Positions 3,018 to 60,142 of a stretch of DNA of 64,000 bases are shown here, in pieces. The position numbers and the translations under genes were made by a program. How positions within the stretch are numbered: the first letter of the stretch is position 1; every line of letters begins with the position of its first letter. Source of the DNA: an uncultured Anaerococcus sp. (GTDB lineage Bacteria; Bacillota; Clostridia; Tissierellales; Peptoniphilaceae); NCBI RefSeq assembly GCF_943912825.1, contig NZ_CALTUX010000004.1, forward strand, positions 2,476 through 66,475, given 5' to 3'. The notes under the pieces were generated by a model. That model had not been told where the DNA came from and did not search any database. It worked only from the letters and a program-made list of their open reading frames with translations.

Positions 3018-3883
3018 ATCTTCTCCCTTTCTTCTCTTAATTTGATGTTGGCATAGGCCCCGTAGAGGTTGTTGTCATTAAAAAATGACACCGGCCTTAT
3101 ATTTAGGCTTACTCCAGCAAATATCTCATCTTTTAGCTTTTCTTTTAGGGCCTTCATAAAGTTTTCATCTTCAGAAATCGCTCCGCCTATATAGATGATT
3201 TCTGGATTTATGGAGTAGGCGATATTGTATAGGCCCATGGCAAGATAGGTGAACATCTTGTCAACCTCGCTATAGCAAGGCTCTTGTTTTTTGAGGTAGT
3301 TTTCAAAAATCGTGTAGGTATCAAGGTCAAGCTCATATTTTTCCTTGATGGCTCTTGCCACATTTGGCAGAGTCCCTAGGGTGGAGAGGTTTTTGATCTT
3401 GCCATAATCGTTAAAGAGCATATAACCAAATTCTCCACTTTCTAGGCTAAGGCCCCTTAGGATTTCCTTATCTTTCACCACAGCCCCACCTATGCCAGAA
3501 CCTATAATAACAAAGCAAACCAGGCTTTCTTCAATCTCTTTATAATAAATTTCCCCAAGAGCTGCGCAGTTGGCATCATTTTCTATGGCTACTGGAATTT
3601 TAAATCTCTCTTCTATATGTCTTGCAAAATTTCTCTCACCCAAGTATCCTAAGGCTGTAAGGCCAGCTACCTGAAAGCTTTCGCTATCAACTGTCCCTGG
3701 AGATGAAAAGCCAATTGCCTCTATGTCATATTCTGCCACAAAGCTTTGGACTGTATCTTCAAGAAATTTGATAAATTCATCCATGGTCGGAAGGCTTTTG
3801 GCAGACGCTTTTTTTATTATTTTTTCATTTTCAATTAGTGCATACTTGGTGGATGACCCACCTATATCAAATACTAAATACAT
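3014..3883 (-). CDS. ROK/BadF-type sugar kinase (no Cys zinc motif; possibly an N-acetylglucosamine or hexose kinase)
   Basis: N-terminal FDIGGSSTKYAL actin-fold ATPase motif. 4-bp ATGA overlap with the upstream GH1 gene. Confidence 0.65.
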   Translation of the reverse strand: MYLVFDIGGSSTKYALIENEKIIKKASAKSLPTMDEFIKFLEDTVQSFVAEYDIEAIGFSSPGTVDSESFQVAGLTALGYLGERNFARHIEERFKIPVAIENDANCAALGEIYYKEIEESLVCFVIIGSGIGGAVVKDKEILRGLSLESGEFGYMLFNDYGKIKNLSTLGTLPNVARAIKEKYELDLDTYTIFENYLKKQEPCYSEVDKMFTYLAMGLYNIAYSINPEIIYIGGAISEDENFMKALKEKLKDEIFAGVSLNIRPVSFFNDNNLYGAYANIKLREEREKI

Positions 3884-3923
3884 AATTCCCTTCTTATGTT
3901 ATAATTATCTTAGGAGTGATTAG

Positions 3924-4655
3924 ATGACAAATACTACTTATAATTTCATTATGGATATCATAAGCTCAAAATCTATCAAACTTTCTAAGTCTGAGAGGAT
4001 AATTGTCGAGAAAATCAAGGATATGGACCTTGACCTAAATAAGCTTCATATAAATGAATTTGCAAAGCTTTTAGACCTTTCAAACTCAACCATAACCCGC
4101 TTTGCCCAAAAGCTGGGCTTTGATGGATATTCTGAGCTTAAATTTAATATTTCTCAAAAACCGACTAGGTCCAAGTCCCTAAGCCAGGAAATCTACAAAA
4201 ATTTTATAGATTCCTGCAAGGCCTTTGATGATAAAACTATTGATTTTATCAAAAACCTTGCAAACTTTGGCAAGATTGCCGTAATTGGAATCGGTTCTTC
4301 TGGTCTTTGCGCCAATGAATTTGTCTACAAATTTGGCGAAATAGGCCTTGATAATACCGACTATGCCAAGGAGCCATATTCTATAAATCTCCTTAGCAAG
4401 GGGCTTTCGGCATCTGACCTTTTGATTGCAATTTCCCTTTCTGGAGAAAACCACAACCTCCTTGAAGGAGTGGACAATGCAAAGACTAATAAGGCCAAGA
4501 TCCTTGCCATCACAGGAGATGGGGAGTCAACCCTTGCCAAAGAAGCTTCCCTTGCTATCATCCTTCCACCCTATCCGAAATATTCCTACAAGATTTCAAA
4601 AATATTTCCTGTAACCTTTATGCTGGATATGATTTGTGAGGCCTATCTTAGCTAG
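3924..4655 (+). CDS. MurR/RpiR-family transcriptional regulator (HTH plus SIS sugar-phosphate-binding domain)
   Basis: HTH_6 segment FAKLLDLSNSTITRFAQKLGFDGYSELKF followed by a SIS domain (IAVIGIGSSG...). Divergent from the ROK gene. Confidence 0.85.
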   Translation: MTNTTYNFIMDIISSKSIKLSKSERIIVEKIKDMDLDLNKLHINEFAKLLDLSNSTITRFAQKLGFDGYSELKFNISQKPTRSKSLSQEIYKNFIDSCKAFDDKTIDFIKNLANFGKIAVIGIGSSGLCANEFVYKFGEIGLDNTDYAKEPYSINLLSKGLSASDLLIAISLSGENHNLLEGVDNAKTNKAKILAITGDGESTLAKEASLAIILPPYPKYSYKISKIFPVTFMLDMICEAYLS

Positions 4656-5931
4656 CCTTTATCATTTCTATGCCTAAGTAGCTTAGGACAGCCTCTACAA
4701 AAATCGAATTAGACCAGGAAAACCAATCTCTGGTATATTTTTCTGGATTATCCTTATCAAAACCCTCGTGACACAAATAGGTGCCTGCGTGGGTTTTTTC
4801 AAAATATCCAAGAATTTCCTCCTGCTCTTTTTTATCAGTAGCCGTCATAAGCTGCATGGAAAGAGCCAAGTGCCAGATATAATTTTCTGGAGTATGGTTT
4901 GAGCCAATCCCCTTGGCAGCCTTTCCTTTATAGTAATTTTCATTTTTTTCTGAAAGGATAAAGGCCCTAGTAGCTTGATAAATTGGGTCATCTTTTTCAA
5001 CATAACCCAGGTAAGGAAGGGATAAAAGGCTTGGGATATTGGCATCATCCATGAGATTATATGAACCCAGCCCGTCTGTCTCGTAGGCATAAATCTTTCC
5101 AAAATCATCATCCTCTACTATGCCATATTTTTTTATCCCGCAATCAATCTCATCTGCTAATTTTTTCATCTTTGCTGATAAATCATTTGCCAAATCCTCC
5201 TGATCTAAGCAAGCCGCTAGCCTTCTTAGGGCTACCAGGCAAAAGGCATTGGCTGGAATTAAATATTGGTAGATGCAGGAATCATCGCTTGGCCTAAAGC
5301 CTGTCCAGGACATACCGGTATATCCAACATCTCCTCCCCTAGGCCCTCCCCTTAGCGAATCGCTAGGGGCCCATGGGTCTGGCCTTTCGAAGATGTAGGG
5401 AGAATTTTCGTGCTTTTGCTCTAATTTTATAAGGTCTACCATATCATTCAAAACTCTTAAAAAGTCTTCGTCAAAAATAGTCCCGTCCTTGGTCTTTTCA
5501 TAATAAAGATAGGCTAGTTCCATCACATAGCAAAGGGAGTCTAGCTCGTATTTTCTCTCCCAAACCCAAGGTGATTCAAAATCTGTGATATCCTTATCAG
5601 TCCAACACCTGCCATTAGCCTCAATATTAAAGGCATTAGCATAAAGATCCTTATCTAGAGAAAATATCTGTCTGGCTAGGACTTTTTTTATAAGATCGTT
5701 GGCTTCATCACTATCTATATAAAAAAGCGGTCTAATCTGTCCAGATGAGTCCCTAAGCCACATGGCCTCTATATCCCCAGTGATTACAAAGGCATCGCCC
5801 CTATCAGTTTCTTTTATGGTGGTGGTGAAGGTGTTGTTAATGGCTTTTTTAAAAATCTTTTTAATGTCATCGCTTATTTGGTCAGATTTTTCAACTCTTT
5901 CCACCAAGTCTCTTACAATTTCTTTCATCAA
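4648..5931 (-). CDS. glycoside hydrolase family 125 (exo-alpha-1,6-mannosidase-like, DUF1237)
   Basis: 427 aa cytoplasmic protein with a WLRDSSGQ motif. Translationally coupled downstream of the GH38 gene, as in streptococcal N-glycan loci. Confidence 0.7.
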   Translation of the reverse strand: MMKEIVRDLVERVEKSDQISDDIKKIFKKAINNTFTTTIKETDRGDAFVITGDIEAMWLRDSSGQIRPLFYIDSDEANDLIKKVLARQIFSLDKDLYANAFNIEANGRCWTDKDITDFESPWVWERKYELDSLCYVMELAYLYYEKTKDGTIFDEDFLRVLNDMVDLIKLEQKHENSPYIFERPDPWAPSDSLRGGPRGGDVGYTGMSWTGFRPSDDSCIYQYLIPANAFCLVALRRLAACLDQEDLANDLSAKMKKLADEIDCGIKKYGIVEDDDFGKIYAYETDGLGSYNLMDDANIPSLLSLPYLGYVEKDDPIYQATRAFILSEKNENYYKGKAAKGIGSNHTPENYIWHLALSMQLMTATDKKEQEEILGYFEKTHAGTYLCHEGFDKDNPEKYTRDWFSWSNSIFVEAVLSYLGIEMIKAS

Positions 5932-8549
5932 AGCTCCAATCTATATGTTTTAATCTCAAAGCCTGGCAAGTTTTTATCAATTTCATCCTTTATTTTTCTC
6001 TCACCTAAGATATCATATTCAACTGCCTTAAGATCAATCTTTTTGGCTGATTTTCCTGGATTATAGACTCTTAGGATTGGTTCGTTTTTGTCATTCCTAA
6101 AAAGAGTTGAAAAAATATTGTCACCCAGGTCGATTTTAGGAAGATTTAAATCTTTCTCTTCGATATCATTTTTATCTAGGCCAAGAGATATAAAATCTAC
6201 TCTGGCTTGTAAGATATCTTGCCTATTTTTATCAAAATCATTTGCAAAGCTTGCAAAATAAAATTCAAAGGTCATTTCAGATAAGTCATCTTTTATAAGC
6301 TGGGCATCAGGTGTTGGGAAATATCCCCAATCTCCAAGCTCGCCCACTGACCTAAAGAGGGTCATATAAAGGCCCTCGCCTTTTATCATCTCATATTCGG
6401 CAGGACCGATGGCAGATACTCCAAAGCCCTTTTTATCATTATCCATAACCTGGACATAGCGGTTGAAATTTTGGGAAAAGTCTGGGTTTTTCCATGTTTG
6501 TGGAGGATAGGCATCTCTTTCTACACATTCAAAAATGGATTCTGCATAGACCTTGTCTGTTTCAAGATTATGACCAAAGAGGAGGCGCATCCTGTGGTCT
6601 TTGGCCAAGTTTTTAAGGCTGATTTTTATCTTAAGAGGGATATTTTTATCATATAGGATGATTTCCTTATCGATGGCCATCTCTATTAAGTCACTTGACC
6701 TATTAGCCCTTCTCTGGGTGATATCGTTAAGTCTTATCTGCTCAGCTAATAGCTTATCTTCTGCTGATTTTGGAAGCTTAAAGCTTTCCCTTATCCTAAT
6801 TATGGTCTTGTCATTTTCCCTTATGATTTTTTGACCTATTAGTTTGCCGCCAAGAATCCTTGTCCCATCTGTCGATTGTCTGTAGATATATTCATTGCCA
6901 ATATCGCCTGTATCTTCGATTGCTAGGACGTTTTTAAAGCTAAGTACAGAGTTTTTATCAAATATATCAAGGCTGGCATTATCATTTATACTTAGCTTGT
7001 AAAAGTCATTTTCGATTTGTTTTTCATTTATTTCACAAGATGCAAAGGAAGATTGACCTGTAACTAGACTTAAGATTTTTTTCTCAAAGGCTCCCAATTC
7101 TAAGGAAAATCTAACCCTGACCTTATTTGCAAAATATGGCTTTCTAAACTTATCATCTGGCAAAATATAGGCAAAACCTGTGCCTAAGTAGGTGATTTCT
7201 GCTGGGATTTCTTTCCCCTCCTCATCTACTAATTTCAAAGCTGGGGCGGATTTCCCCGCAAGTTCATCATAAACATCCGGATAATCTATACCGAAAAATT
7301 TCCTGTCTATTTCAATCTCTGTCACCACTTCCTTAATCCTCCTATAAGGGAGGGTATTTATGATGCAGATAGCATAATCATTGACATTGGCAGTGCTTTC
7401 TCTAATCTTTTTCTTGGCGAAATCTTCTAGGTAATCTAGACCTTCATCCACATTCTTAAAGCGTCTTAGATTGCCATCGTGGACAGAATCTACAGAGCAG
7501 CCGCAAATGCTGTCGTGGGGGTGGTTTTTGATTAATTCTTGGTAGAAATAATCTAGCTTTTGGTGAGGATAGGCATCCCTGTCCACAAAAAGAGTGAATA
7601 GGGGTTGGATAACTTCTTCAAAACGCATCTCCAGGCTCTTGTTGTATTTTTTAAGATAATACCTAGATGATGATGTGGAGTTTAGAGTCCACCAGCCATC
7701 AGTCGCCTGACTTCTAAGCTCTCCTTTGATTGTATCAATCTCTCCCACCTCATTTTCAAGGGCCTTAAAATATAGGTCTAAATTTGAATGAACAAAGTCA
7801 TAATCCTCATAAAGAGCATTGGCCTTTTTTAAGATTTGTCCGATATTTTTCTGGACTGGCGAATGGTCGCAACCGTTCATTAAAAGAAGCTGGTTTGTAG
7901 ATGCGTATTTTTCCATATCGGCTATGCGTTTATCCATGTAGGCCTTAAGGTCTTCCTCATCTTCTGGTATATCTAGGCCATTGGCATACCAATTTGCAAA
8001 AAGCACGCTTAGGGTCTTATCCCCATTTGGGCTCTGCCAATAAATTTCAGAATTTTTTGATGTGAAATCTTCTATAACTACATTGTCAAAGCCAGTCGCC
8101 TTAACTCCCCTGCCAAAATATGCCACGTCTATCCCTGCTTTTTTAAGAATTTGGCTGGCCTGGCCAATATTGCCAAAGGTATCTGGAAAATAGCCAATCA
8201 TTGAAGGAGATCCCCACTTTTTTATATTTTTTATGCCAAGGCTTAGATTTTTAAGGTTAGACTCGCCACTTGTAAGGAAGGCATCTTGGAGGATATACCA
8301 AGGTCCTAGCTTAAGCTTTCCAGCTTCTATCAGATTTTTAATTTTTTCCTTGTTTTGAGGGCGAACCTCAAGATAATCTCCTATAGGAAGATAATGGCCA
8401 TCTAGCCAATAGTATTTAAAATCCGGGTCTTCAAAGGCCTCAAGGACTCCATCCATCAGGTCAATTAGGCGCATATGGTGGTTTTCATAAGGCAGGTACC
8501 ACTCCCTATCCCAATGAGTGTGGCTTACCACGTGGACGGTCTTTTTCAT
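5928..8549 (-). CDS. glycoside hydrolase family 38 alpha-mannosidase
   Basis: N-terminus VHVVSHTHWDREWY (GH38 metal-binding signature). 873 aa. 4-bp overlaps with both neighbours. Confidence 0.85.
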   Translation of the reverse strand: MKKTVHVVSHTHWDREWYLPYENHHMRLIDLMDGVLEAFEDPDFKYYWLDGHYLPIGDYLEVRPQNKEKIKNLIEAGKLKLGPWYILQDAFLTSGESNLKNLSLGIKNIKKWGSPSMIGYFPDTFGNIGQASQILKKAGIDVAYFGRGVKATGFDNVVIEDFTSKNSEIYWQSPNGDKTLSVLFANWYANGLDIPEDEEDLKAYMDKRIADMEKYASTNQLLLMNGCDHSPVQKNIGQILKKANALYEDYDFVHSNLDLYFKALENEVGEIDTIKGELRSQATDGWWTLNSTSSSRYYLKKYNKSLEMRFEEVIQPLFTLFVDRDAYPHQKLDYFYQELIKNHPHDSICGCSVDSVHDGNLRRFKNVDEGLDYLEDFAKKKIRESTANVNDYAICIINTLPYRRIKEVVTEIEIDRKFFGIDYPDVYDELAGKSAPALKLVDEEGKEIPAEITYLGTGFAYILPDDKFRKPYFANKVRVRFSLELGAFEKKILSLVTGQSSFASCEINEKQIENDFYKLSINDNASLDIFDKNSVLSFKNVLAIEDTGDIGNEYIYRQSTDGTRILGGKLIGQKIIRENDKTIIRIRESFKLPKSAEDKLLAEQIRLNDITQRRANRSSDLIEMAIDKEIILYDKNIPLKIKISLKNLAKDHRMRLLFGHNLETDKVYAESIFECVERDAYPPQTWKNPDFSQNFNRYVQVMDNDKKGFGVSAIGPAEYEMIKGEGLYMTLFRSVGELGDWGYFPTPDAQLIKDDLSEMTFEFYFASFANDFDKNRQDILQARVDFISLGLDKNDIEEKDLNLPKIDLGDNIFSTLFRNDKNEPILRVYNPGKSAKKIDLKAVEYDILGERKIKDEIDKNLPGFEIKTYRLEL

Positions 8550-50279: not shown

Positions 50280-53036
50280 CTACAGATAATTCTTATAGTT
50301 TCTAATTATAAAATGATCATCTGATTCTGCTTTAGATTTTATAAATTCATACGCTTCAACATCTATTGATTTGATGCTTTCTAAATTTTTTAATATCAAA
50401 AACTTTATGTGTGCGCTATCAAAATTCATCATTTTATTAATCCTACTGATTATAGATTTTTTATTATATACTCTCAACATATATAACATAGCTTCTACAG
50501 AACGGTATCTTACACTAAGATTACTGTCATACGATTTTTGTAAAACAAATTGCAAAATTGCCGCTTTTATATCATCTTTAGCATTAGATATATAACCATA
50601 TTTACAGATATTAAAAATTGTACGAAGTGATTCAATCTTGTCAAAATCATCTACATCTGTGTATGTAGCTAATAATAGAATTAAATCATCAATCTCAAGT
50701 TTATCTAAAACTAATTTTAAAATAGAAAATTTAAAATTTAAAGTAAATTGTGATTGCATTCCTATGAAGTTAGAATCTCTTACATTTAGTATAGTCTCTT
50801 CATTTTCTAACATATACTTAATATTTTTATTTTCCTTATATTCTTCACTATTATTTAAAATCGAAATAATCAAATCAAGCGCTCCGCATTTTTCATAAAT
50901 CAGCTGATTTTCAGCTAACAAAGTCTCTACGCATGCATCTATAATTTCATATTTTATATCATTTTCAATCTCAATTTTTTTAACATCTATTATATTTCTT
51001 ATATTTGTATATGGGTCATATCCTGACATAGAATATTTTCCATCAACACCCTGACTCTTATTTCTTTCATGAATAATTTGTATATTTTTATTTATAAATT
51101 CTAAAATCACATCTTGATTATTAGTTTCTAACACTTTATATATCATCTTTGTAATTTCAGGAAAATATTCGTTTACTATTAAATCTACTTTTGTATTAAT
51201 TTTAATGTTGTCAGAAAAGCATTTATTAATATTAGAAAATAACTCAGCTAAATTATCATAATTGATGGATATCCCATCTAAGTTTATAATTTTAATAATT
51301 TTATCGAGTAATTTCACTATAGTTTTGATATTAATGCTTTGTATATCTACATCCCCTAATAAAGATACTATATTGCGATAGAATCGCGATAAGTCATTAT
51401 CAATGAATAAAATTATTATATTTACAATTTCTTCACCGCATATTCTTTTAATATTGTATTCTATAGCATCAAAAAAATAATATCCTAAATTTATAACTCT
51501 ATTTTTATCAGATATCCATGTCAGAATATAAGCGTGTAATTCTTCCCAAACCTCAGTAAAAAAATCATCATTAAAGTAACAACCTAAATATTGAAAGCAT
51601 AAAAATTTTCTAATATTTCTCCTATGAACAATAGGATAATTCTCAATGCTTTTATATATTTCTCTCGCAGTTGTACTATCCATTTTTCCATAGATATCAT
51701 TAAATAAATTGTAGACTTTTTTTATTTCTTTAGGTCTTTCTGAAATAAGTGTTGTCTTTATTAGAAATTTTCTAAAATTCCAATCATCATACTCATCACA
51801 CAGTTGATAAACCATTAACTTCATCATATCAATAATTGAAATTAAATGAGATAAAGATCCGTAATAAATAGCTGTAATATAATAATTTGATATATACATT
51901 ATATATTTAGAAATATTATTCCCATACCTTACAGTACTTGGACTCTTTGATGCCTCATTTATTGTTTCTTTAATTATTTCTTTATATAAATTTTTTTCAT
52001 TTCTATCATTTAATGGATAATATAATGGCTTCTTATTCGATAATATCTTTTTCTGTTCTTCATTGGATATAACAATCTTATTATTTATTTCATTATCAAA
52101 ATTCCTGAGATTTCTTAAATCTATCGTAATATCTTGTAAATACCAGTTAGGAAGCTTGTTATTTTTTGCTATATCATATGCTTTATTCATATCAATAATA
52201 GCTTTGTCTATGTCGCCCTTAAAATAATTTACTATGGCATTCCACCTAGATTCAGTAACTTCAGAATATTTTTCACTTTGATTTTTGCCAATCTCGAAAA
52301 GTAAATGTGGTTTATCAAATCTATATATTGAATCATTATAAAATAACACATCTAAAAACTGACTAGATAGAATATCAAATTTATTAGTGCGATCTTCAGG
52401 AATATCTGATTCTAATCCTATTAACTCACATAGCTTATTTTTAGTTACATTAATACTAGAATACAAGCTTTTATCTATTTCATCGGCTGATTCAAAGTCA
52501 TTATCATTAAAGTTATCTATTCCATTATTATTAATATCATAAAAATTTGTAGAGACTAAGTGCCCCCTACAATAATTAGCATATATCTCAATAATTTCAA
52601 TAATTAGACTTTCATAAACTGTCTCTTTTAACTTATCAAATTCATTAATAGTTTTATATTTGGGACCATTATTATCACGAATTTCTTGCTGCAGCCGTGT
52701 TATTTTTTTGTTATCGTCATTACAAAATATAAATATCGATTTCTTAGATAATATTAAGGAACGTCTATACTCTGTTACAACCCCTTCTGGAACATCTTCT
52801 TCATTAGATATTAAAAATAAACAAACATCTGAATCATTGAGTTTATTTAAATAAGAATCTCTTGCAGTCATTGAACTAGCCATGGTACCTTCAAAAACAT
52901 ACGCGCTAATAAAGCCTGTTTCTTCTAAAAGTAATTTTAATTCATTTCTAATAGTATCATATTTTTCATCACCGCACTTAGAACTTATAAAAACCTTAAT
53001 CTTGTCTTCAAATTTAATATTATAATTCAATAGCAT
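50280..53036 (-). CDS. 918-aa hypothetical protein with N-terminal DUF4062-like domain and long alpha-helical repeat region (candidate defence protein); very AT-rich gene
   Basis: N-terminus KVFISSKCGDEKYDTIRNELKLLLEETGF...DVCLFLISNEEDVPEGVVTEYRRSL matches the DUF4062 pattern (FISS...acidic...hydrophobic core). The remainder is Leu/Ile/Asn-rich helical repeats. GC is visibly far below that of the flanking genes. Confidence 0.5.
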   Translation of the reverse strand: MLLNYNIKFEDKIKVFISSKCGDEKYDTIRNELKLLLEETGFISAYVFEGTMASSMTARDSYLNKLNDSDVCLFLISNEEDVPEGVVTEYRRSLILSKKSIFIFCNDDNKKITRLQQEIRDNNGPKYKTINEFDKLKETVYESLIIEIIEIYANYCRGHLVSTNFYDINNNGIDNFNDNDFESADEIDKSLYSSINVTKNKLCELIGLESDIPEDRTNKFDILSSQFLDVLFYNDSIYRFDKPHLLFEIGKNQSEKYSEVTESRWNAIVNYFKGDIDKAIIDMNKAYDIAKNNKLPNWYLQDITIDLRNLRNFDNEINNKIVISNEEQKKILSNKKPLYYPLNDRNEKNLYKEIIKETINEASKSPSTVRYGNNISKYIMYISNYYITAIYYGSLSHLISIIDMMKLMVYQLCDEYDDWNFRKFLIKTTLISERPKEIKKVYNLFNDIYGKMDSTTAREIYKSIENYPIVHRRNIRKFLCFQYLGCYFNDDFFTEVWEELHAYILTWISDKNRVINLGYYFFDAIEYNIKRICGEEIVNIIILFIDNDLSRFYRNIVSLLGDVDIQSINIKTIVKLLDKIIKIINLDGISINYDNLAELFSNINKCFSDNIKINTKVDLIVNEYFPEITKMIYKVLETNNQDVILEFINKNIQIIHERNKSQGVDGKYSMSGYDPYTNIRNIIDVKKIEIENDIKYEIIDACVETLLAENQLIYEKCGALDLIISILNNSEEYKENKNIKYMLENEETILNVRDSNFIGMQSQFTLNFKFSILKLVLDKLEIDDLILLLATYTDVDDFDKIESLRTIFNICKYGYISNAKDDIKAAILQFVLQKSYDSNLSVRYRSVEAMLYMLRVYNKKSIISRINKMMNFDSAHIKFLILKNLESIKSIDVEAYEFIKSKAESDDHFIIRNYKNYL

Positions 53037-53203: not shown

Positions 53204-54157
53204 GTGAATAGATTTGAGGTTATTATGAAACAACCGTTGATTGATTTTTCTTCTTATCCTGTTAGGCTTACGCTAAAGCGTTTGCTTAAGGATAAGTCTA
53301 CTAAAAAAAATATAATATGGGCCACTAATAACTATGAAGACTTTGGTCAGGCTTTTAATGATAGGGCTGAAATTACTGAAGCTGTTTTTGATCATGGATT
53401 TATCCTTGAGCCTAGGACTAGCAAGTCGGCTGAGACTCAGCTGGAACGTACTAGGAAGAAGGCTGAAGTCTATACCCCTACTTGGGTGGTTAATTTTATG
53501 AATAATTATTGCGATGAGGTCTATTTTGGTAGGAAGGATGTCTTTAATATTCCAAAGGATAAGACATGGGTCCCTCTTAGGGAGAAAATTTCTTTTCCTG
53601 AAGGGAAATCCTGGCAAGACTATGTTGATTCTCCTAGGCTTGAAATAACTTGTGGAGAGGGCCCTTATCTTGTATCTAGATATGATGTGGCGACTAGTCA
53701 CTTAATTAGACATACCATAGACAGGATTGGCTTTCTGGATAGGAAGCTTAGGATAGTTAATGAAAATACTGACTCTAAGGAAGACTGGACACATTGGGCT
53801 ATAAGAGCTGTTCAGGCCTCTTATGGCTATGAATACCAGGGTGACAGCTTGTTACTAGCTAGGATAAATGTCCTACTTACCTTTGTAGAATATTATGAAC
53901 AAAGATGGGATGAGGATGTGGCTAAAGATATCCTAAATAAGCTTGCCAATATCATCAGCTGGAATATCTGGCAAATGGATGGACTTACTGACACAGTACC
54001 CTTTGGAGCGCCAGTGCCTAATAATGAACAAATGAGTATATTTGATTTATTTGAAGATAAGAAAGATGAAGAAGAAAGTAAACTCATAGCCTGTAGGATA
54101 TTTGATTGGAAAGCCAACAAGTCCCAGACTTTCGCATCACTTAAGGAGCATATATGA
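53204..54157 (+). CDS. N-terminal half of a split gamma-class N6-adenine DNA methyltransferase (motifs X, I and II/III; no NPPY)
   Basis: AEVYTPTWVVNFM (motif X; compare TaqI GRVETPPEVVDFM), LEITCGEGPYL (motif I) and YGYEYQGDSLLLARINVLL (GxExD...A..N region). Its stop overlaps the next ATG (ATGA). Confidence 0.6.
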   Translation: MNRFEVIMKQPLIDFSSYPVRLTLKRLLKDKSTKKNIIWATNNYEDFGQAFNDRAEITEAVFDHGFILEPRTSKSAETQLERTRKKAEVYTPTWVVNFMNNYCDEVYFGRKDVFNIPKDKTWVPLREKISFPEGKSWQDYVDSPRLEITCGEGPYLVSRYDVATSHLIRHTIDRIGFLDRKLRIVNENTDSKEDWTHWAIRAVQASYGYEYQGDSLLLARINVLLTFVEYYEQRWDEDVAKDILNKLANIISWNIWQMDGLTDTVPFGAPVPNNEQMSIFDLFEDKKDEEESKLIACRIFDWKANKSQTFASLKEHI

Positions 54158-55179
54158 AAAAATTTGATTTTGTAATTGGGAACCCACCTTATAATGAAAC
54201 AGTAGAAGGCAGAAGTGAAGATCCACCAATTTATCATTTCTTTTACGATGCATCAATTGATATTGCTGACAGTATAACATTCATAACTCCTTCACGATTT
54301 TTATTTGATACAGGAAAAACACCTTCTAAATGGAATAAAAAAATGTTAAATAGTTCTCACTTTAAAATATTAAGGTATGAACCAAATGGAGCTAAAGTTT
54401 TTCCAACAACCGATATAAAGGGTGGTGTTGCCATAACCTCGTGGAATAATAACAAAATTCATGAACCTATTGGAACCTTTTATCCTAATCCAGAAATCAA
54501 AGAAATCATTAAAAAAGTAAAAAATATAAATAGTAATTTTTTTGATAGTATTATATTTTCTAATACAAGTTATAAATATACCGAATTGTTTTACGATGAA
54601 AATCCCGAATTTAAAGATAGAGTATCAGGTGGTTCAAGAAGATATTTATCGTCTACCTGCTTTGAAAAATTCCCAGAATCTTTTTTAGATAAAAAATCAA
54701 ATAAAGATGATGTCACAATAATTGGAAGACAAGACTATAAAAGAAAAACAAAATATTTCAATATTAACTATTTAAATCCACCAGAAAATTTTAATAGTTA
54801 TAAATTGGTACTACCTAGCTCTAATGGTAGTGGAAAATTTGGCGAAACATTAAGTGACCCATTTGTAGGAAACCCATGTGAAGGATATACAGAAACTTTT
54901 GTAACATTTGGTAATTTTGAAAAATATGAAGAAGCAAATAATAGTCTAACTTATATTAAAACTAAATTTGCAAGAGCTATGCTAAATTCAAAAAAAATCA
55001 CTCAAGGAAACAAAAATTCAAAAGTTTGGGAAAATGTACCACTCCAAGATTTCACAGAAAACTCTGACATTGATTGGAGCAAGTCCATTGCTGAGATTGA
55101 CCAACAATTGTACAAGAAGTATTGCCTATCTCCTGAAGAGATTGACTTTATTGAGGAAAAAGTACAGGAGATGAAGTGA
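54154..55179 (+). CDS. C-terminal (catalytic plus putative target-recognition) half of a split gamma-class N6-adenine DNA methyltransferase
   Basis: Begins FDFVIGNPPY (motif IV) followed by PIYHFFY...ITFITPSRFLF (compare TaqI YPIHVFK...LVFVVPATWL). Own RBS AAGGAG 7 nt upstream, and a stop 4 codons upstream in-frame. Confidence 0.7.
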   Translation: MKKFDFVIGNPPYNETVEGRSEDPPIYHFFYDASIDIADSITFITPSRFLFDTGKTPSKWNKKMLNSSHFKILRYEPNGAKVFPTTDIKGGVAITSWNNNKIHEPIGTFYPNPEIKEIIKKVKNINSNFFDSIIFSNTSYKYTELFYDENPEFKDRVSGGSRRYLSSTCFEKFPESFLDKKSNKDDVTIIGRQDYKRKTKYFNINYLNPPENFNSYKLVLPSSNGSGKFGETLSDPFVGNPCEGYTETFVTFGNFEKYEEANNSLTYIKTKFARAMLNSKKITQGNKNSKVWENVPLQDFTENSDIDWSKSIAEIDQQLYKKYCLSPEEIDFIEEKVQEMK

Positions 55180-58100
55180 TGAATAGACCTAATATTAATA
55201 CTAGCAAGGAAGTTATACCTGTCTGCTATGCCTACACCACACCTGGTGTGACCTATCATGAGGGATGGACCAAGATTGGTTTTACTGAAAGAGATGTAGA
55301 AACTAGGGTCAGAGAACAAGTCGGCACTGCTGGCATAAGGTATAAGATTGAGTGGGAAAAAAACGCCGTCTATGAAGGCTCAAACCAAACCTTTAGGGAT
55401 TCTGATTTTCATAAATACCTTGAAAATAATAATATCGAGAGGGAACCAGGACTTGAGTGGTTTAAAATTGATCCCTTACTTGCCAAACATAAATTTGATG
55501 AATTTAAGGAAAATAGAGGTCTTATAGAGACAAACCTTAAGCCGGCTCCTTATAAACTTAGAAACGAACAAGATGAGGCTGTCGCTAAGACTATGGCTTA
55601 TTTTACTTCTCATTATGAGGGCGAATTTCTTTGGAATGCCAAGCCTCGTTTTGGCAAGACCCTTGCTTCTTATGACCTTTGCATGAGGATGGGTTTTGAA
55701 AATGTCCTAATTGTCACAAATAGGCCTGCTATTGCTGATTCTTGGTATGGAGACTATGTCAAATTTGTAGGACCGGCATCTGGCTATATTTTTGTAAGCC
55801 ATGTCGATACTATTAAGAATGAAAAATACGTCTATAGTAGAAAAGAATTTGTCGATATCTTGCCTTCTGTTGAAAATTATAAGGGCTGTATAGAATTTGT
55901 AAGCCTTCAAGACCTCAAGGGTTCGATTCATTTTGGCGGTAGCCATGACAAGCTAGATGAAATTAAGGATACTAATTGGGATATATTAATTATCGACGAA
56001 GCCCACGAGGGTGTTGATACCTACAAGACCGATGTGGCCTTTAATCAAATCAAGAGGAAAAACACCCTTCACTTGTCAGGTACACCTTTTAAGGCCCTTG
56101 CCAATGACAAGTTTCCAGATGATGCCATCTACAATTGGACCTATGCAGATGAGCAAAGGGCTAAGAGGGACTTTTCAAGCTCTGATTTAGAGGAAAATCC
56201 TTATGCGACTCTGCCAAGACTAAATCTTTTTACCTACCAAATGTCAGATATTATCAGAGATAAAATCGAAGATGGGATTGAACTTGATGGGGAAAATGTT
56301 GAATATGCCTTTGACCTCAATGAGTTTTTCTCAACTGACGAGAGAGGAGCCTTTGTCTACAAGAATGATGTAGATAAGTTTTTAGATGCCTTAACCCAAA
56401 ATGAGAAATTTCCTTTTTCTACACCTGAACTAAGGGATGAAATCAAGCACTCTTTTTGGATTTTGAACAGGGTTGATTCAGCCAAGGCCCTTAAGAAAAA
56501 ACTTGAAGTCAATCCTATTTTTAGGGACTATGAGATTGTCCTAGCTGCTGGTGATGGCAAGACTGATGATGAGATTATTAATGAGGATTCCCTTAATCGT
56601 GTTAAGGATGCTATCAAAAAATACGATAAGACCATTACCCTTTCTGTAGGCCAGCTTACAACAGGTGTGACCATTCCAGAATGGACAGCTGTCCTTATGC
56701 TTGCCAATATGAAATCCCCTGCCCTCTACATGCAGGCTGCCTTTAGGGCACAAAACCCTTGCCTATTTTCTAATAATGGCAAACATTTTAGGAAGGAAAA
56801 CGCCTATGTTTTTGACTTTGACCCAGCAAGGACCCTAGATATTTTCGAAAAATTTGCAAATGATCTTTCCCCTACTACATCAGCCGGTGGTGGAGATTTA
56901 GGAACTAGAAAGAAGCATATCAGAGATCTGTTAAACTTCTTCCCTGTCTATGGTGAGGATGAAGATGGTCAGATGGTGCTTTTGGATGCTGAAAAAGTCC
57001 TAACTATACCTAGAAAAATTAAGTCAGTAGAGGTTGTGAACCGTGGCTTTATGTCCAATTTCCTTTTTAAGAATATTGCTAATATTTTTAGGGCTCCTAG
57101 TCAAGTTAGGCAAATTTTAGAAAAACTTAATCCGACCAAAGAAGGAAAACCAATTAAGATTGATGATGATACAGCCGATGAACTAGATATAAATGATGAT
57201 GGCGATGTAGATATTGAGCAAACAAAAATAATAGGCAAGGCCCAAGATGTATTTGGTCCAAAAATTTATGATGATATCAAAGAAGATTTGTTAATATTCG
57301 AAAAAGATCTGGTAACCGATCGTAAAAAATCTGGTCTTGATGATATAGTTGAAAAAATTACCGAACCAATAATTGCTCCTATTATAGACAGAAGCAAAGA
57401 AGTCTATGGTAATAAATTGAGAAGGACAGTCGAGAAAAATATCGAAAGAGACATCAAGGATAAGGCAAGTGCAATCATTAAAAAAGGCTATATCGAATTT
57501 GAGATTGAAAATAATAAGCTTGAAGCACAAAAGGAAAAAGACCTTAATAACTCAAAGTCTTCAACAGAATCTAGTCAGATAGAAAGTAAGTATGATGATA
57601 TTTTCAAGGCAAAAAGGGAAGAATTGGCCAAGAAAATAAACGAAGACTTGGAAAATTATAACATAATTGAAGATTCTATTATGACAGCCACTGAGAAAAT
57701 CGAAACAGATGTGAAGGAAAAAGAAAAACGTACTATTGAAGATGATGTTAGAGATAGGCTCAGAGGATTTTCTAGGACTATTCCATCTTTTCTTATGGCC
57801 TATGGGACTTTTGATACAAAATTATCTAATTTCGATAAAATAATCCCAAATGATGTCTTCTTAGAAGTCACTTCTATTAGCATAGAGGAATTTAAAGACT
57901 TACGTGATGGCTTTGACTATACCGATCCAGAAAGCGGAGACCTTATGCACTATGAAGGTGGACTCTTTGATGAATTAGTATTTAACGATTCTGTGGCAGA
58001 GTTTTTGAATAAGAAAATAGACTTAGCCAATTATTTTGACCCTGCAATCAAGAGGGATATTTTTGATTACATTCCTCCACAAAAAACTAACCAAATATTT

Positions 58101-58490
58101 ACACCAAAGAAAGTTGTAAAGGAAATGGTGGATTTGTTAGAAAAGGAAAATCCTGGATGCTTTGATAATCCAAACTTCACCTTTATTGATCCTTATATGA
58201 AGTCAGGTTTATATGTAGCAGAAATCGTAAAAAGATTATACAGGAGCGAAAAAATTAAAGAATTCTATCCTAACGATAAAGAAAGGCTAAACCATATTTT
58301 CGCTAAACAAGTCTATGGCCTTGCCCCAACAGAAATAATTTACAAAATTGCAAAAAACTTCGTCCTAGGTTTTAGCGATGAAATAGAGATTGAAAAACAT
58401 AAGCTAAGGCTTTTAGATTCTCTAGCAAGTATCCAAGAGGATAGGTTTGAAGAGGATTTGGTAAAATTATATCCAGAACTTAAGGATTGA
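55176..58490 (+). CDS. 1104-aa multidomain protein: T5orf172/GIY-YIG-like N-terminal domain, SF2 DEAH helicase core, and a C-terminal second copy of the methyltransferase N-half (motifs X, I and II/III) ending just before where NPPY would lie
   Basis: T5orf172-like CYAYTTPGVTYHEGWTKIGFTERDVETRVREQ. Walker A AKPRFGKT, DEAH IIDEAHEG, motif VI QAAFRAQNP. C-terminus QIFTPKKVVKEMVDLL (X), FIDPYMKSGLYV (I), QVYGLAPTEIIYKIAKNFVLG (compare ORF 53204-54157). Confidence 0.65.
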   Translation: MMNRPNINTSKEVIPVCYAYTTPGVTYHEGWTKIGFTERDVETRVREQVGTAGIRYKIEWEKNAVYEGSNQTFRDSDFHKYLENNNIEREPGLEWFKIDPLLAKHKFDEFKENRGLIETNLKPAPYKLRNEQDEAVAKTMAYFTSHYEGEFLWNAKPRFGKTLASYDLCMRMGFENVLIVTNRPAIADSWYGDYVKFVGPASGYIFVSHVDTIKNEKYVYSRKEFVDILPSVENYKGCIEFVSLQDLKGSIHFGGSHDKLDEIKDTNWDILIIDEAHEGVDTYKTDVAFNQIKRKNTLHLSGTPFKALANDKFPDDAIYNWTYADEQRAKRDFSSSDLEENPYATLPRLNLFTYQMSDIIRDKIEDGIELDGENVEYAFDLNEFFSTDERGAFVYKNDVDKFLDALTQNEKFPFSTPELRDEIKHSFWILNRVDSAKALKKKLEVNPIFRDYEIVLAAGDGKTDDEIINEDSLNRVKDAIKKYDKTITLSVGQLTTGVTIPEWTAVLMLANMKSPALYMQAAFRAQNPCLFSNNGKHFRKENAYVFDFDPARTLDIFEKFANDLSPTTSAGGGDLGTRKKHIRDLLNFFPVYGEDEDGQMVLLDAEKVLTIPRKIKSVEVVNRGFMSNFLFKNIANIFRAPSQVRQILEKLNPTKEGKPIKIDDDTADELDINDDGDVDIEQTKIIGKAQDVFGPKIYDDIKEDLLIFEKDLVTDRKKSGLDDIVEKITEPIIAPIIDRSKEVYGNKLRRTVEKNIERDIKDKASAIIKKGYIEFEIENNKLEAQKEKDLNNSKSSTESSQIESKYDDIFKAKREELAKKINEDLENYNIIEDSIMTATEKIETDVKEKEKRTIEDDVRDRLRGFSRTIPSFLMAYGTFDTKLSNFDKIIPNDVFLEVTSISIEEFKDLRDGFDYTDPESGDLMHYEGGLFDELVFNDSVAEFLNKKIDLANYFDPAIKRDIFDYIPPQKTNQIFTPKKVVKEMVDLLEKENPGCFDNPNFTFIDPYMKSGLYVAEIVKRLYRSEKIKEFYPNDKERLNHIFAKQVYGLAPTEIIYKIAKNFVLGFSDEIEIEKHKLRLLDSLASIQEDRFEEDLVKLYPELKD

Positions 58491-58604: not shown

Positions 58605-58637
58605 AAAGAGCAGGCTCAAATAGTCTGCTCTTTTTAT
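58605..58637 (+). terminator. rho-independent terminator
   Basis: agagcag-gctcaaatagt-ctgctct followed by TTTTT. Confidence 0.75.
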
Positions 58638-58732: not shown

Positions 58733-60142
58733 ATGAGTAAAGGGAGTATTATGATAATTAATTTTAAGAAAACTCTAGCGACTTTTATGGCTTTTGGGCT
58801 CTTTGTAGGACTTTGTGGCCAATCTTTTGCTAGTGATGAAAATATAGAAAACAAACAAACAAGTAGCTTATTCGAGATCCTTGCCGGCGATGTGGTTGCT
58901 GATAAGGCGACTTCTGAGATTAAGGTGGATTATGCGGATGATCCTGCCTTTAAGGAGGAATTTGATGCTAGATTTGCCCTTCTTTCTAGGATTGAAGAGG
59001 CTAGAAATATCGAAGGTCTTGATTTGACTGAATTTATCAAGCTTTTAAATACCAAGGCTGCTGATAAGGATAAGCTAAACACAGGTCTTGATTCTTTGAA
59101 TAAGCTTATCGAGGAAAGTGGCCAGAAGGTCGCTGTGGACCTTGATATTGCACCTATCAAAGCTAAGGTCAATGATTATATCCTAAAGGGTATGCTTTTC
59201 TATGCTGATAAGCTTGATAAGACTGATGTGACCACCCTTCATGCCTATTATGAGGCAGTTGTTGGTTCGCTTTATTACAAAAATGCTAATGAAGAGGGCA
59301 GGAAGTCTTATGATGAGACCCTTAAGGGAATTTATGAGACCTTGACTAAGGCTAATGAAAAAATCGAAGTCGGTGAGGAATTCACTGATGAAGAAAAGGC
59401 TAATTTTAAAGATTCTTTTGATAAGCTTGACCAAATGGTTAAGGAAAAGACTTCTAAGCCTCTTAAAAATGAGACCACATCTCTTAGAAATGGAATCTAT
59501 TTAGCTAGCGCCAACGAGATGAGTGTGAGCGAGAATAAAGATGGCGAAAATAAAGACGATGAGAATAAAATCAATGAAAATTCTGCCTTCTACAAGTCAG
59601 CAAAGACTGGAATTAAGGAAGCTTACGAGAAGTTATCAGCTGATCAAAGGAAAAAACTTGACCAGATGAATACCAATAACGATGACCTATTATCAGATGA
59701 CGAGCTAAAGGCAGACGGTGAATTCACCCTACCTTTATCTGATGACCACTACTTTAAGCCATTTACAGCCAATGTAAGCGGCTCATCAAGCTCTACTGAC
59801 ACAAGCTCAAGCCAGTCAACTACTAGCGGGTCAAGCACAAGCCAGTCAAGCACTAGCCAAACTACCACACCTAGCACAACAACATCCACTAGTAGCCAAA
59901 CACCTACAACTACCGCCCAAAGTCCAATTGGCGGCACACCAGAGACTGTCACCATCGGTGGAGCAGAAAATAAATCAGCTGACCAAACAAAAAAAGAAGA
60001 CGACAAGAAAGACGCCCCAACCAATACCACATCTACATCCTATGTAAAAACAGGTATAAAGGGAATCGCCTACGTGGGAATAATCCTACTAGTAGCAATC
60101 GGCGCCTACACTCTTCTTAACAAAAACAAAGACAAGAAATAA
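58733..60142 (+). CDS. surface protein with signal peptide, Ser/Thr-rich linker and C-terminal sorting-signal-like anchor
   Basis: Signal peptide ...GLCGQSFA|SDE. A Ser/Thr tract of about 70 aa. C-terminus YVKTG followed by a hydrophobic segment and the NKNKDKK tail (an LPXTG-type architecture with a non-canonical motif). Confidence 0.6.
   Translation: MSKGSIMIINFKKTLATFMAFGLFVGLCGQSFASDENIENKQTSSLFEILAGDVVADKATSEIKVDYADDPAFKEEFDARFALLSRIEEARNIEGLDLTEFIKLLNTKAADKDKLNTGLDSLNKLIEESGQKVAVDLDIAPIKAKVNDYILKGMLFYADKLDKTDVTTLHAYYEAVVGSLYYKNANEEGRKSYDETLKGIYETLTKANEKIEVGEEFTDEEKANFKDSFDKLDQMVKEKTSKPLKNETTSLRNGIYLASANEMSVSENKDGENKDDENKINENSAFYKSAKTGIKEAYEKLSADQRKKLDQMNTNNDDLLSDDELKADGEFTLPLSDDHYFKPFTANVSGSSSSTDTSSSQSTTSGSSTSQSSTSQTTTPSTTTSTSSQTPTTTAQSPIGGTPETVTIGGAENKSADQTKKEDDKKDAPTNTTSTSYVKTGIKGIAYVGIILLVAIGAYTLLNKNKDKK

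Follow-up and report, generated by a model that had tools for sequence, protein, structure and literature searches.

Is a DNA methyltransferase whose fold is divided between two genes a broken enzyme or a genuine two-subunit one, and does its catalytic half serve one partner or two? This question is raised by two overlapping reading frames within a 64,000-nt stretch of DNA from an uncultured Anaerococcus sp., the whole of which is called the window here. An earlier note on this DNA had interpreted the two frames as the halves of a TaqI/Eco57I-like adenine methyltransferase. Here, we analysed both frames (genes A and B), the gene behind them (gene C) and their homologues in other genomes. Coordinates are those of the window, and all features lie on the + strand.

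Genes A and B carry one set of methyltransferase motifs

Gene A (53225-54157) encodes a protein of 310 aa that is predicted to be the SAM-binding N-terminal half of a gamma-class N6-adenine DNA methyltransferase. It contains motif X (EVYTPTWVVNFM, 53462-53500), motif I (LEITCGEGPYL, 53639-53671), motif II (YGYEYQGD, 53822-53845) and motif III (CRIFDW, 54092-54109). Neither NPPY nor any other catalytic motif IV was found in gene A or in the open reading frame 53204-54157 that contains it, which agrees with the motif content that had been noted for that frame. Its previously assumed start, GTG at 53204, was replaced. Most likely, gene A begins with the ATG at 53225, because all homologues begin with M-x-x-x-L-I-D and the identical database protein P0001 has 310 aa. 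The homologues share a mean column identity of 68%, and motifs X, I, II and III are all invariant in the alignment. Over its full length, gene A matched the PADLOC model MTase_II PDLC03390 (E 1e-97). A Pfam search with gene A alone gave no match, and no match to its sequence was found among solved structures at E <= 1. Compared to CamA and M.BseCI, gene A has large insertions between motifs I and II and between motifs II and III, as well as an additional N-terminal region.

Gene B (54154-55179; 341 aa) is the putative catalytic half, comprising motifs IV-VIII, a target-recognition domain and a conserved C-terminal tail. It opens with MKKFDFVIGNPPY, that is, with the beta-4 strand FDFVIG followed by NPPY at 54181-54192. 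Both the FDFVIGNPPY start and the target-recognition-like C-terminal part had been pointed out before and are present. The Pfam profile Eco57I (PF07669) aligned to residues 2-83 of B with 60.6 bits (cut-off 25.3) and covered positions 73-171 of 171; since it is matched only from position 73, the start of gene B falls midway through the domain model. The profile (4-171) runs across the A-B junction in the fused homologue L007. Gene B also matched PADLOC MTase_II PDLC03375 and positions 1012-1359 of the model REase_MTase_IIG, and GNPPY is retained in all intact B homologues.

The junction between the two genes (54143-54157) consists of an AAGGAG ribosome-binding site (54143-54148, 5 nt before the ATG), which sits inside the conserved L-K-E codons of A, and of an ATGA stop/start overlap (54154-54157). 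A TAA at 54142-54144 closes the reading frame of B four codons upstream. All three elements are present in the sequence as the earlier note had described them.

Modelled as one joined chain, A and B (pLDDT 79.7, pTM 0.75) adopted a single CamA/M.BseCI-like methyltransferase fold and matched CamA, M.BseCI, BrxX, DrdV, BpuSI and MmeI with probabilities of 0.99-1.00 in Foldseek. For this model, and likewise for the model of C and B described below, the chains were artificially concatenated and the halves thereby forced together. Motifs and model support the assignment of A and B as a two-subunit gamma-class N6-adenine methyltransferase, while activity has been shown for no member of the family. 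That both proteins are required for activity is inferred only from the division of the motifs, with the SAM motifs in A and NPPY in B.

Gene C and the single catalytic half

Gene C (55176-58490; 1104 aa) starts at GTG 55176 or ATG 55179 and overlaps the stop codon of B. The three genes are translationally coupled, and in the window all three reading frames are intact with all motifs. No terminator-like sites were found between A, B and C, and a terminator-like hairpin with a 12-bp stem followed by a T-rich tail (58605-58633) closes the operon. The homology to the Anaerococcus locus L005 stops at about 58550. Both the three-gene operon and the second, equally truncated N-terminal half in its third protein had been overlooked previously.

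The protein C begins with a nuclease-like T5orf172/MUG113 domain of the GIY-YIG superfamily (about 55233-55475; MUG113 E 4e-5, T5orf172 E 3e-4), followed by an SF2 helicase with Walker A GKT and DEAH motifs (about 55551-56850; ResIII 46.5 bits) and a variable K/E-rich linker (about 56850-57815). Gene C also matched PADLOC REase_MTase_IIG. The C-terminal domain, here called Cc (57816-58487), is predicted to be a second, divergent SAM-binding methyltransferase N-half, with motif X (QIFTPKKVV), motif I (FIDPYMKSGLY), a motif II-like element (QVYGLAPTE) and motif III (LRLLDS). It terminates with ...LVKLYPELKD and a stop codon, exactly where related proteins run on with MKFDVVIGNPPY, the expected NPPY start. 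About 40 representative full-length C proteins terminate at Cc according to an exhaustive profile search. A word-indexed protein search with Cc returned only fragments of ~230-390 aa, missed the C protein of the window itself and was unusable for questions of architecture.

Evidence for Cc includes a match to N6_Mtase and a column identity of 76% with invariant motifs. Natural Cc-B fusions exist in the form of roughly 1350-1450-aa proteins and of P0185 and P0191. The latter two (510-537 aa) were considered as stand-alone Cc-B methylases, but are located at contig ends and are probably the tails of longer C-B proteins. A direct homology between A and Cc was not upheld either, as BLASTP and hhalign aligned motif X only; the two are distant paralogues at best. 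The model of Cc joined to B (pLDDT 88.7, pTM 0.78), for which the alignment included the natural fusions, matched CamA and, with Foldseek E values of about 1e-11, the methyltransferase-recognition unit of the Type ISP enzymes LlaBIII/LlaGI (4XQK, 5FFJ).

Homologues of A were found in at least 580 species representatives, and architectures were counted in 81 species-level loci. As separate proteins, each half has thousands of homologues, of about 306-330 aa for A and about 340-350 aa for B. The genes A and B are split in 39 of the 81 loci and fused in 28, while in 6 B is fused to the downstream protein. Gene C comes next in nearly every locus with sufficient downstream sequence. The B module was found in 73 loci, free, fused to A or fused to Cc, and we observed it always as a single copy beside two N-halves; a second B was not found in the window. 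Gene A is always present where B is found, which also holds for the loci retrieved from the C-B side. NCBIfam has no model for A, B or C. Full-text literature searches that covered adenine methylases of split or heterodimeric type, variants of Type ISP and T5orf172 together with Eco57I found no description of the A-B-C family, and the literature searched contained no biochemical or methylome data for any family member.

In the reading that we prefer, with a probability of roughly 0.6, A-B-C constitutes a Type ISP-like restriction-modification operon with a heterodimeric methylase, the B subunit of which also docks onto C. The methyltransferase fold would be divided between strands beta-3 and beta-4, with A providing motifs X and I-III and B providing NPPY, motifs IV-VIII and the recognition domain. 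Non-covalent association of A with B, which is inferred, would yield an m6A methyltransferase protecting the host DNA. C would act as the restriction component, consisting of a T5orf172/GIY-YIG-type nuclease and an SF2 translocase without a DNA-recognition domain of its own, and its C-terminus would be another SAM-binding half, truncated where A is. By docking also onto C, the single B would generate a Type ISP-like enzyme with a specificity that could not differ from that of the A-B methylase. Replacement of the B gene would then re-target modification and restriction together and appears to be recent in this locus. The anatomy of the locus, the conserved split, the constant ratio of two N-halves to one B and the exchange of the cassette have been shown, whereas the methylation and restriction activities are inferences, as is the sharing of B with C.

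No more than tentative is the further proposal that a free and exchangeable B completes either A, giving the protective methylase, or the tail of C, giving the restriction enzyme, and that fused A-B and C-B genes still release B from a conserved internal start. In the fused A-B genes, a Shine-Dalgarno sequence and a start codon are kept at the B boundary in 26 of 28 cases, compared to 11% for other internal Met codons. This conservation may also be a relic of frequent fission and fusion. Moreover, where A and B are fused, B would be accessible to Cc only if domains were swapped or if free B arose by internal initiation.

The main competitor, which we consider unlikely, dispenses with any sharing of B by fold complementation. 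It takes A-B as a two-subunit Mod-like methylase and Cc as a vestige of a single-chain Type ISP ancestor, retained only as a module for docking or for sensing SAM, by which C is kept on the complete A-B methylase, as Res is on Mod in Type III systems. Such an arrangement would easily account for the 28 fused A-B genes that are still paired with a C lacking B, if C binds complete A-B, and it is consistent with the strong divergence of A and Cc and with the absence of the canonical acidic residue of motif II from Cc, which may bind SAM abnormally. It is less easily reconciled with the truncation of Cc exactly at the complementation boundary and with the residues of its motif X (TP), motif I (D..MKSG.Y) and motif III (D), which are as invariant as when Cc is joined covalently to B. 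Pure docking also leaves unexplained why A persists with all its SAM motifs intact in loci where B is fused to C, and the internal ribosome-binding site and start codon for B that are kept in fused genes speak against it as well.

Conservation of the split and exchange of gene B

The break point lies between motif III and the beta-4/NPPY strand in all 39 split loci. The junctions at this point differ and include ATGA, a stop codon followed by 1-3 nt and ATG, and a stop codon followed by 2 nt and ATGGG. In some loci, A and B are separated by 0.2-3.4 kb of other genes, among them a HEPN/MNT toxin-antitoxin pair in L009 and an IS256 element in L097. The search for split pairs in other genomes that the earlier note had suggested found the split conserved, and with thousands of homologues of each half existing as separate proteins, the pattern is far beyond chance. 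The jumbo phages PTm1 and PTm5 of Tenacibaculum carry the inverted order B, HTH regulator gene, A, and lack C, which argues that A and B are sufficient for methylation, itself an inference.

The claim of a genuine two-subunit methyltransferase rather than a fresh frameshift is supported by the common break point with its varied junctions and inserted genes, by strong purifying selection on both halves, by the inverted order in the phages and by the folding of the A+B model as one methyltransferase. The arrangement is labile, since fused A-B genes are nearly as common and the two states, which are interleaved on the tree of A, interconvert often. Within the family, the split is a labile polymorphism rather than a fixed trait.

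Gene B stands out by its composition. Its body has a GC content of 27.6% and a GC3 of 14%, compared to about 37-39% and 33-35%, respectively, for A and C. DNA identity to L005 drops from 75-91% to 49-68% across positions 54200-55000 and returns to 76-92% from 55001. Another locus, L006, has the same type of B allele as the window, with 70-82% identity. This stretch of foreign composition between conserved ends is a horizontally exchanged specificity cassette (54200-55000) that appears to have been swapped recently. The earlier note had not recognised it as such.

The exchange bears on a second alternative, namely that the split is neutral noise. The loop between motifs III and IV would tolerate breakage, fused and split states would drift, and the locus might be decaying or be a methylase-only relic without restriction, as was proposed for DnmA-YeeB-YeeC. 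Fission and fusion have indeed occurred frequently along the A tree, and decay is visible in several loci: L001, L066 and L073 have a broken B, others such as L026 and L064 lack B, and C is broken in L042 and in L085, one of the fragments retrieved with Cc, in which the break falls in the linker. In addition, a cluster made up of the same kinds of parts is reported to have no defence phenotype (PMC9973331). We nevertheless regard this explanation as improbable, because the A, B and C frames of the window are intact and coupled, the family has been held together over at least ten phyla, plasmids and phages, and the recent replacement of the B cassette speaks for specificity still being under selection.

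A third alternative, in which the real product is a single fused A-B protein and the split reflects a fresh frameshift, an error of sequencing or programmed ribosomal frameshifting, is already largely refuted. In its favour, the frames of A and B are one base apart, a run of six A follows the ATG and fused homologues read ...KEKEMKKFDFVIGNPPY through the same point. Against it, independent assemblies of Anaerococcus and Peptoniphilus (L001, L005 and L006) have the same ATGA junction, and in other clades the junctions differ or whole genes lie between A and B. The A-run follows the stop of A, so that slippage there cannot restore the frame. The lack of a slippery heptamer ahead of the stop and of conservation among the junctions also speaks against programmed frameshifting.

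Among DNA methyltransferases a divided fold had been called rare. This is correct for the literature searched, in which only a couple of natural C5-cytosine enzymes are known to be divided in this way, but not for genomes: the A-B family is large, extends over many phyla, plasmids and phages and has an adenine methylase cut cleanly into its cofactor-binding and its catalytic sub-domain. Methylome annotation pipelines in which the two halves are labelled separately as "Type II methylase" or "restriction endonuclease subunit M" will assign motifs wrongly. For split-enzyme tools of targeted methylation, an adenine methyltransferase that is split by nature and has interchangeable recognition modules is a ready-made scaffold. 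If the helicase-nuclease truly shares B, restriction-modification systems would have a new means of locking the specificities of modification and restriction together, and both could be changed in one recombination step.

Comparison with known systems

The order of motifs is that of gamma-class Eco57I/TaqI-like enzymes, with X, I, II and III in A and NPPY and the recognition domain in B, but the criterion of a catalytic domain on one polypeptide is not met, as a stop codon lies between motifs III and IV. Over their whole length, CamA of C. difficile and M.BseCI are the structures that the A+B model and the Cc+B model both match best, and they likewise combine a methyltransferase domain with a DNA-recognition domain at the C-terminus. 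They are, however, single polypeptides of orphan or Type II character, and the sequence identity is only 10-16%.

Enzymes with a catalytic domain encoded by two genes, both of which are needed, have been described for C5-cytosine methylation, namely M.AquI and M.EcoHK31I (PMC3404938). As in these, A and B are separately translated and jointly carry one set of catalytic motifs. M.AquI and M.EcoHK31I are split in or after the variable region and their small subunits contain motifs IX-X (M.AquI) or IX alone (M.EcoHK31I), whereas the enzyme considered here belongs to the gamma-class N6-adenine methyltransferases, is cut between motifs III and IV, separating the SAM-binding from the catalytic sub-domain, and its catalytic half may serve two partners. 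In H. pylori, the split "Type ISP" genes are due to ordinary frameshifts.

The DnmA-YeeB-YeeC operon of B. subtilis and Vibrio combines an MmeI-like gamma-class adenine methylase, an SF2 helicase and a T5orf172/GIY-YIG protein (PMC9973331). These are three complete separate proteins, in contrast to the A-B-C operon, with no split fold and no second SAM-binding half, and the B. subtilis cluster showed neither restriction nor phage defence (PMC9973331), which weighs against the reading preferred here.

Type I and Type III systems use one specificity subunit (HsdS or Mod) for modification and restriction, so that a swap re-targets both, and their restriction subunit is an SF2 motor with a nuclease that lacks its own DNA recognition, as does C. 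What they share is an entire domain or protein, and it binds complete methyltransferase subunits, whereas here half a Rossmann fold with a recognition domain is proposed to be shared. The definition of Type III, with a beta-class Mod and a Res with C-terminal PD-(D/E)xK nuclease, is not met by the gamma-class order and the N-terminal T5orf172-type nuclease-like domain.

Type IIG systems of the Eco57I type share the PF07669 family, and C and B together match the corresponding PADLOC model REase_MTase_IIG (PDLC03626). They also share the logic of a stand-alone methylase beside a restriction protein that bears methyltransferase sequence. Both proteins of the Eco57I system possess a complete methyltransferase together with a recognition domain of their own, whereas here two SAM-binding halves go with one catalytic/recognition half only.

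Also among the closest systems are the Type ISP enzymes LlaBIII/LlaGI, with a nuclease, an SF2 motor, a gamma-class adenine methyltransferase and a C-terminal target-recognition domain in the order that C and B would have if taken together. The Type ISP nuclease is an N-terminal Mrr-family domain of the PD-(D/E)xK type (PMC4666363), unlike the T5orf172/GIY-YIG-like N-terminus of C. Behind its helicase, C has only a SAM-binding half in place of the full methyltransferase and recognition domain, and three genes, cut inside the methyltransferase fold, stand in place of a single polypeptide. The C-B fused relatives (about 1350-1450 aa) are single-chain proteins as in Type ISP, yet A is still found alongside them. 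The A-B-C operon thus differs from Type ISP in that the catalytic/recognition half is a separate gene placed upstream and that a conserved extra SAM-binding half, A, is always present.

Anatomy of the divided methyltransferase and its operon

The earlier note had read 53204-55179 as two overlapping ORFs that encode the halves of a gamma-class adenine methyltransferase, and both are present as described. The junction also holds: the A stop codon and the B start codon overlap as ATGA, with AAGGAG 5 nt upstream and a TAA closing the B frame four codons 5′ of its ATG. The GTG at 53204 is most likely not the start of the first gene; homologues and an identical 310-aa database protein give ATG 53225, placing A at 53225-54157 and B at 54154-55179. 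A carries motif X (AEVYTPTWVVNFM), motif I (LEITCGEGPYL), motif II (YGYEYQGD) and motif III (CRIFDW), and its stop codon lies 15 residues past motif III. At the N-terminus of B, MKKFDFVIGNPPY, strand beta-4 leads into catalytic motif IV. B starts mid-domain, since its Pfam Eco57I match begins only at profile position 73 of 171; A had no match in Pfam. PADLOC, the restriction-modification models of which derive from REBASE, assigned a distinct full-length 'MTase_II' model to each. In the public annotation A is a 'restriction endonuclease subunit M' and B an 'Eco57I ... domain-containing protein'. By the top database matches of both, the window belongs to an uncultured Anaerococcus species.

In the predicted structure of A joined to B (pLDDT 79.7, pTM 0.75), beta-1 (LEITC), beta-2 (YGYEY) and beta-3 (RIFD) come from A and beta-4 (FDFVIG) onward from B, with low confidence only in loops and at the junction. 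The top matches among solved structures, CamA, M.BseCI, BrxX/PglX, DrdV, BpuSI and MmeI, are full-length gamma-class adenine methyltransferases with C-terminal recognition domains. Model and matches together indicate that the cut leaves the SAM-binding sub-domain on one side and the catalytic sub-domain with the recognition domain on the other, with the caveat that chain concatenation forces the halves close.

The operon A-B-C was observed to have coupled starts and only one strong terminator-like hairpin, at 58605-58633. Directly upstream, in divergent orientation, lies a 918-aa ORF (50280-53036, minus strand) with 24.6% GC versus 37.6% for the window. Its N-terminus has a weak DUF4062 match (24.1 bits, just below the cut-off) and PADLOC returned no match; it looks like a second foreign insertion beside the restriction-modification operon and is possibly another defence gene. 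Downstream of the terminator, 58733-60142 (plus strand) encodes a 469-aa protein whose N-terminus resembles a signal sequence and whose C-terminus has a hydrophobic anchor, with a long stretch rich in Ser/Thr; it is unrelated to A-B-C and probably located at the cell surface.

Conservation of the split and exchange of B

Separate matches to A (~306-330 aa) and B (~340-350 aa) number in the thousands among database proteins, and when one genome per species was scanned, at least 580 species proved to have an A homologue. The best 80 loci of that scan belong to Bacillota, Bacteroidota, Actinomycetota, Spirochaetota, Fibrobacterota, Verrucomicrobiota, Chloroflexota, Planctomycetota, Synergistota and one methanogen bin. 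BLASTP of segments running from stop to stop was used to classify the arrangement at 81 species-level loci. This search for split pairs in other genomes, which the earlier note had proposed, found A and B split in 39 loci (29 with intact B) and fused into one protein of 650-690 aa in 28. A stands alone in six, adjoining a ~1350-aa protein with B at its C-terminus, and no B was found in eight (decayed, or at contig ends). The split is therefore real and conserved, yet labile.

Where A and B are split, the junction takes several unrelated forms: ATGA in Anaerococcus and Peptoniphilus, stop plus 1-3 nt plus ATG, stop plus 2 nt plus ATGGGxAAG, and inserts of 0.2-3.4 kb, including a HEPN/MNT toxin-antitoxin pair and IS256 on a Bifidobacterium plasmid. 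In a neighbour-joining tree of A, loci with split and with fused genes are intermingled, which implies many transitions. Whole clades are uniformly split. A is strongly constrained (mean column identity 68%, all four motifs invariant) and GNPPY is kept in every intact B. A fresh frameshift, an assembly artefact and programmed frameshifting are excluded by the conserved split, the varied junctions and inserts, this constraint and the phage pairs combined. The same evidence supports the earlier view of a genuine two-subunit arrangement and speaks for A and B functioning as separate polypeptides.

The A-B junction is also an insertion hot spot, occupied by a nucleotidyltransferase/HEPN toxin-antitoxin pair, an IS256 transposase or 1-3.4 kb of other genes (homologous loci L009/L004, 8948-9543; L097, B. 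longum plasmid NZ_CP065398, 7900-9237; further L012, L025, L028, L031, L061 and L073).

In the Tenacibaculum jumbo phages PTm1 and PTm5 the order is inverted relative to the window: a B-like protein (344 aa, N-terminus KFDIIVGNPPY), an HTH regulator and an A-like protein (335 aa, all four motifs). No homologue of C was found in either phage. The halves in the virulent PTm1 (NC_049340, 3540-5972), which lacks the helicase-nuclease, could be a self-protection methylase or, speculatively, a decoy titrating the host B or A subunit.

B was observed to be exchanged as a cassette. The GC content of its body (54200-55000) is 27.6%, against 38.6% in A, 36.5% in C and 37.6% in the window, and its GC3 is 14% versus 35% in A and 33% in C. 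DNA identity to another Anaerococcus locus, L005, is 75-91% over A, 49-68% exactly over 54201-55000 and 76-92% from 55001; locus L006 has the same B type as the window (70-82%). Protein identity to relatives ranges from 24% to 76% for B and is ~50-80% for A and C. These patterns mark B as the variable, specificity-bearing module and the window's allele as a recent import from a lower-GC donor. Recombination can be anchored by the conserved 5′ end of B (NPPY region) and its 3′ tail (SDIDWSKSIAEIDQQLYKKY...).

Gene C and the single B per locus

The earlier interpretation is supported but incomplete, as the context of C downstream had not been seen. C (55176/55179-58490, 1104 aa, start overlapping the B stop) has at its N-terminus a MUG113/T5orf172 domain (GIY-YIG superfamily), then an SF2 helicase (ResIII, GKT, DEAH), a long variable K/E-rich linker and, in its final 200-odd residues, the domain Cc with QIFTPKKVV as motif X, FIDPYMKSGLY as motif I, QVYGLAPTE as a motif II-like element and LRLLDS as motif III. 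C ends ...LVKLYPELKD where the database proteins P0185 and P0191, which have Pfam N6_Mtase and a complete Eco57I domain, run on as ...LVKAYGGEQ-MKFDVVIGNPPYQ. C thus ends in a second SAM-binding half, cut at the boundary of A. A and Cc are very divergent, and their alignment is limited to motif X. In C proteins without B, Cc has 76% column identity, with TP, D..MKSG.Y and the motif III Asp invariant. An exhaustive profile search found Cc in 1193 representative clusters; among the best 150, ~40 full-length proteins stop right at Cc and ~28 are C-B fusions with 320-370 residues beyond it.

The linker (57100-57700) is the least conserved part of C, with 50-65% DNA identity to close relatives. This is where C falls into two ORFs, of 825 and 231 aa in a close relative (L085, 5380-8696) and of 679 and 466 aa in L042, and many ~230-aa database 'proteins' starting MAYG... 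are Cc fragments of this origin. A word-indexed search with the 224-aa Cc returned short proteins only and missed the window's own C; length distributions can mislead when a domain of a long protein is the query.

All loci with a detectable B have A, one Cc-bearing nuclease-helicase and exactly one B, which either stands by itself or follows A or Cc in a fusion. A second B was found in none of the loci classified, and the window also holds only one. A is likewise upstream in loci reached from the C-B side (L091, L093, L094), and its motifs X, I, II and III are unchanged in C-B fusion loci even though A lacks a B partner of its own at these sites. Fused A-B genes have an in-frame start (ATG in 26 of 28, GTG in two) directly before K(K/L)FDxVIGNPPY, preceded in 26 of 28 by a Shine-Dalgarno-like sequence, versus 11% at the remaining internal Met codons within these genes; C-B fusions have the same junction form, ...KE.MKFD....

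On the 10-kb plasmid pRS5 of a Pediococcus pentosaceus wine isolate (NC_012031), A (306 aa) lies upstream of a 1417-aa C-B protein, and the two genes (2188-7364) take nearly half of the sequence; with only two genes, this compact form of the system is suited to experiments. Gene order is not absolutely fixed, since on a metagenome contig (L088) an A homologue (43% identical, 2720-3463) comes after a Cc-B fusion and a Bro-N gene instead of upstream.

Proposed assemblies and known systems

We infer with fair confidence that A and B would assemble over the beta-3/beta-4 edge into a host-protecting m6A methylase, and that C may act as an ATP-dependent restriction component; assembly and activities are inferred. 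With equal confidence, C would have to obtain its specificity from B because it lacks a recognition domain. B may even complete Cc directly to form a Type ISP-like enzyme, A-B and C-B being alternative assemblies of one shared half; we put the probability of this reading at about 0.35-0.45. A single B per locus, the intact motifs of A in C-B loci and the starts kept inside fused genes form a pattern that is expected if both N-terminal halves need access to B, which is no proof of such access. The predicted structure of Cc joined to B (pLDDT 88.7, pTM 0.78) is more confident than that of A with B and matches CamA first, followed by the Type ISP enzymes LlaBIII and LlaGI. The main rival is that Cc is a docking or SAM-sensing remnant that keeps C attached to a complete A-B unit, as in Type III systems. 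A half Rossmann fold shared by methylase and restriction enzyme would, if true, be new in kind.

The system is a widespread, apparently undescribed Type ISP/IIG-like restriction-modification system, its activity being inferred, with a naturally split gamma-class adenine methylase; our literature search found no description of the A-B-C family or its split. The naturally two-polypeptide DNA methyltransferases in the literature searched, M.AquI and M.EcoHK31I, are C5 enzymes cut elsewhere in the fold (PMC3404938). In the DnmA-YeeB-YeeC cluster, parts of these kinds occur as complete, separate proteins, and the cluster showed no defence in B. subtilis (PMC9973331). Eco57I-type Type IIG systems pair a fused restriction-methylase protein with a stand-alone methylase, and a specificity subunit is also shared in Type I and Type III systems. 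The nearest functional analogues, the Type ISP enzymes, have the domain order that C followed by B would give, but as single chains with an Mrr nuclease (PMC4666363).
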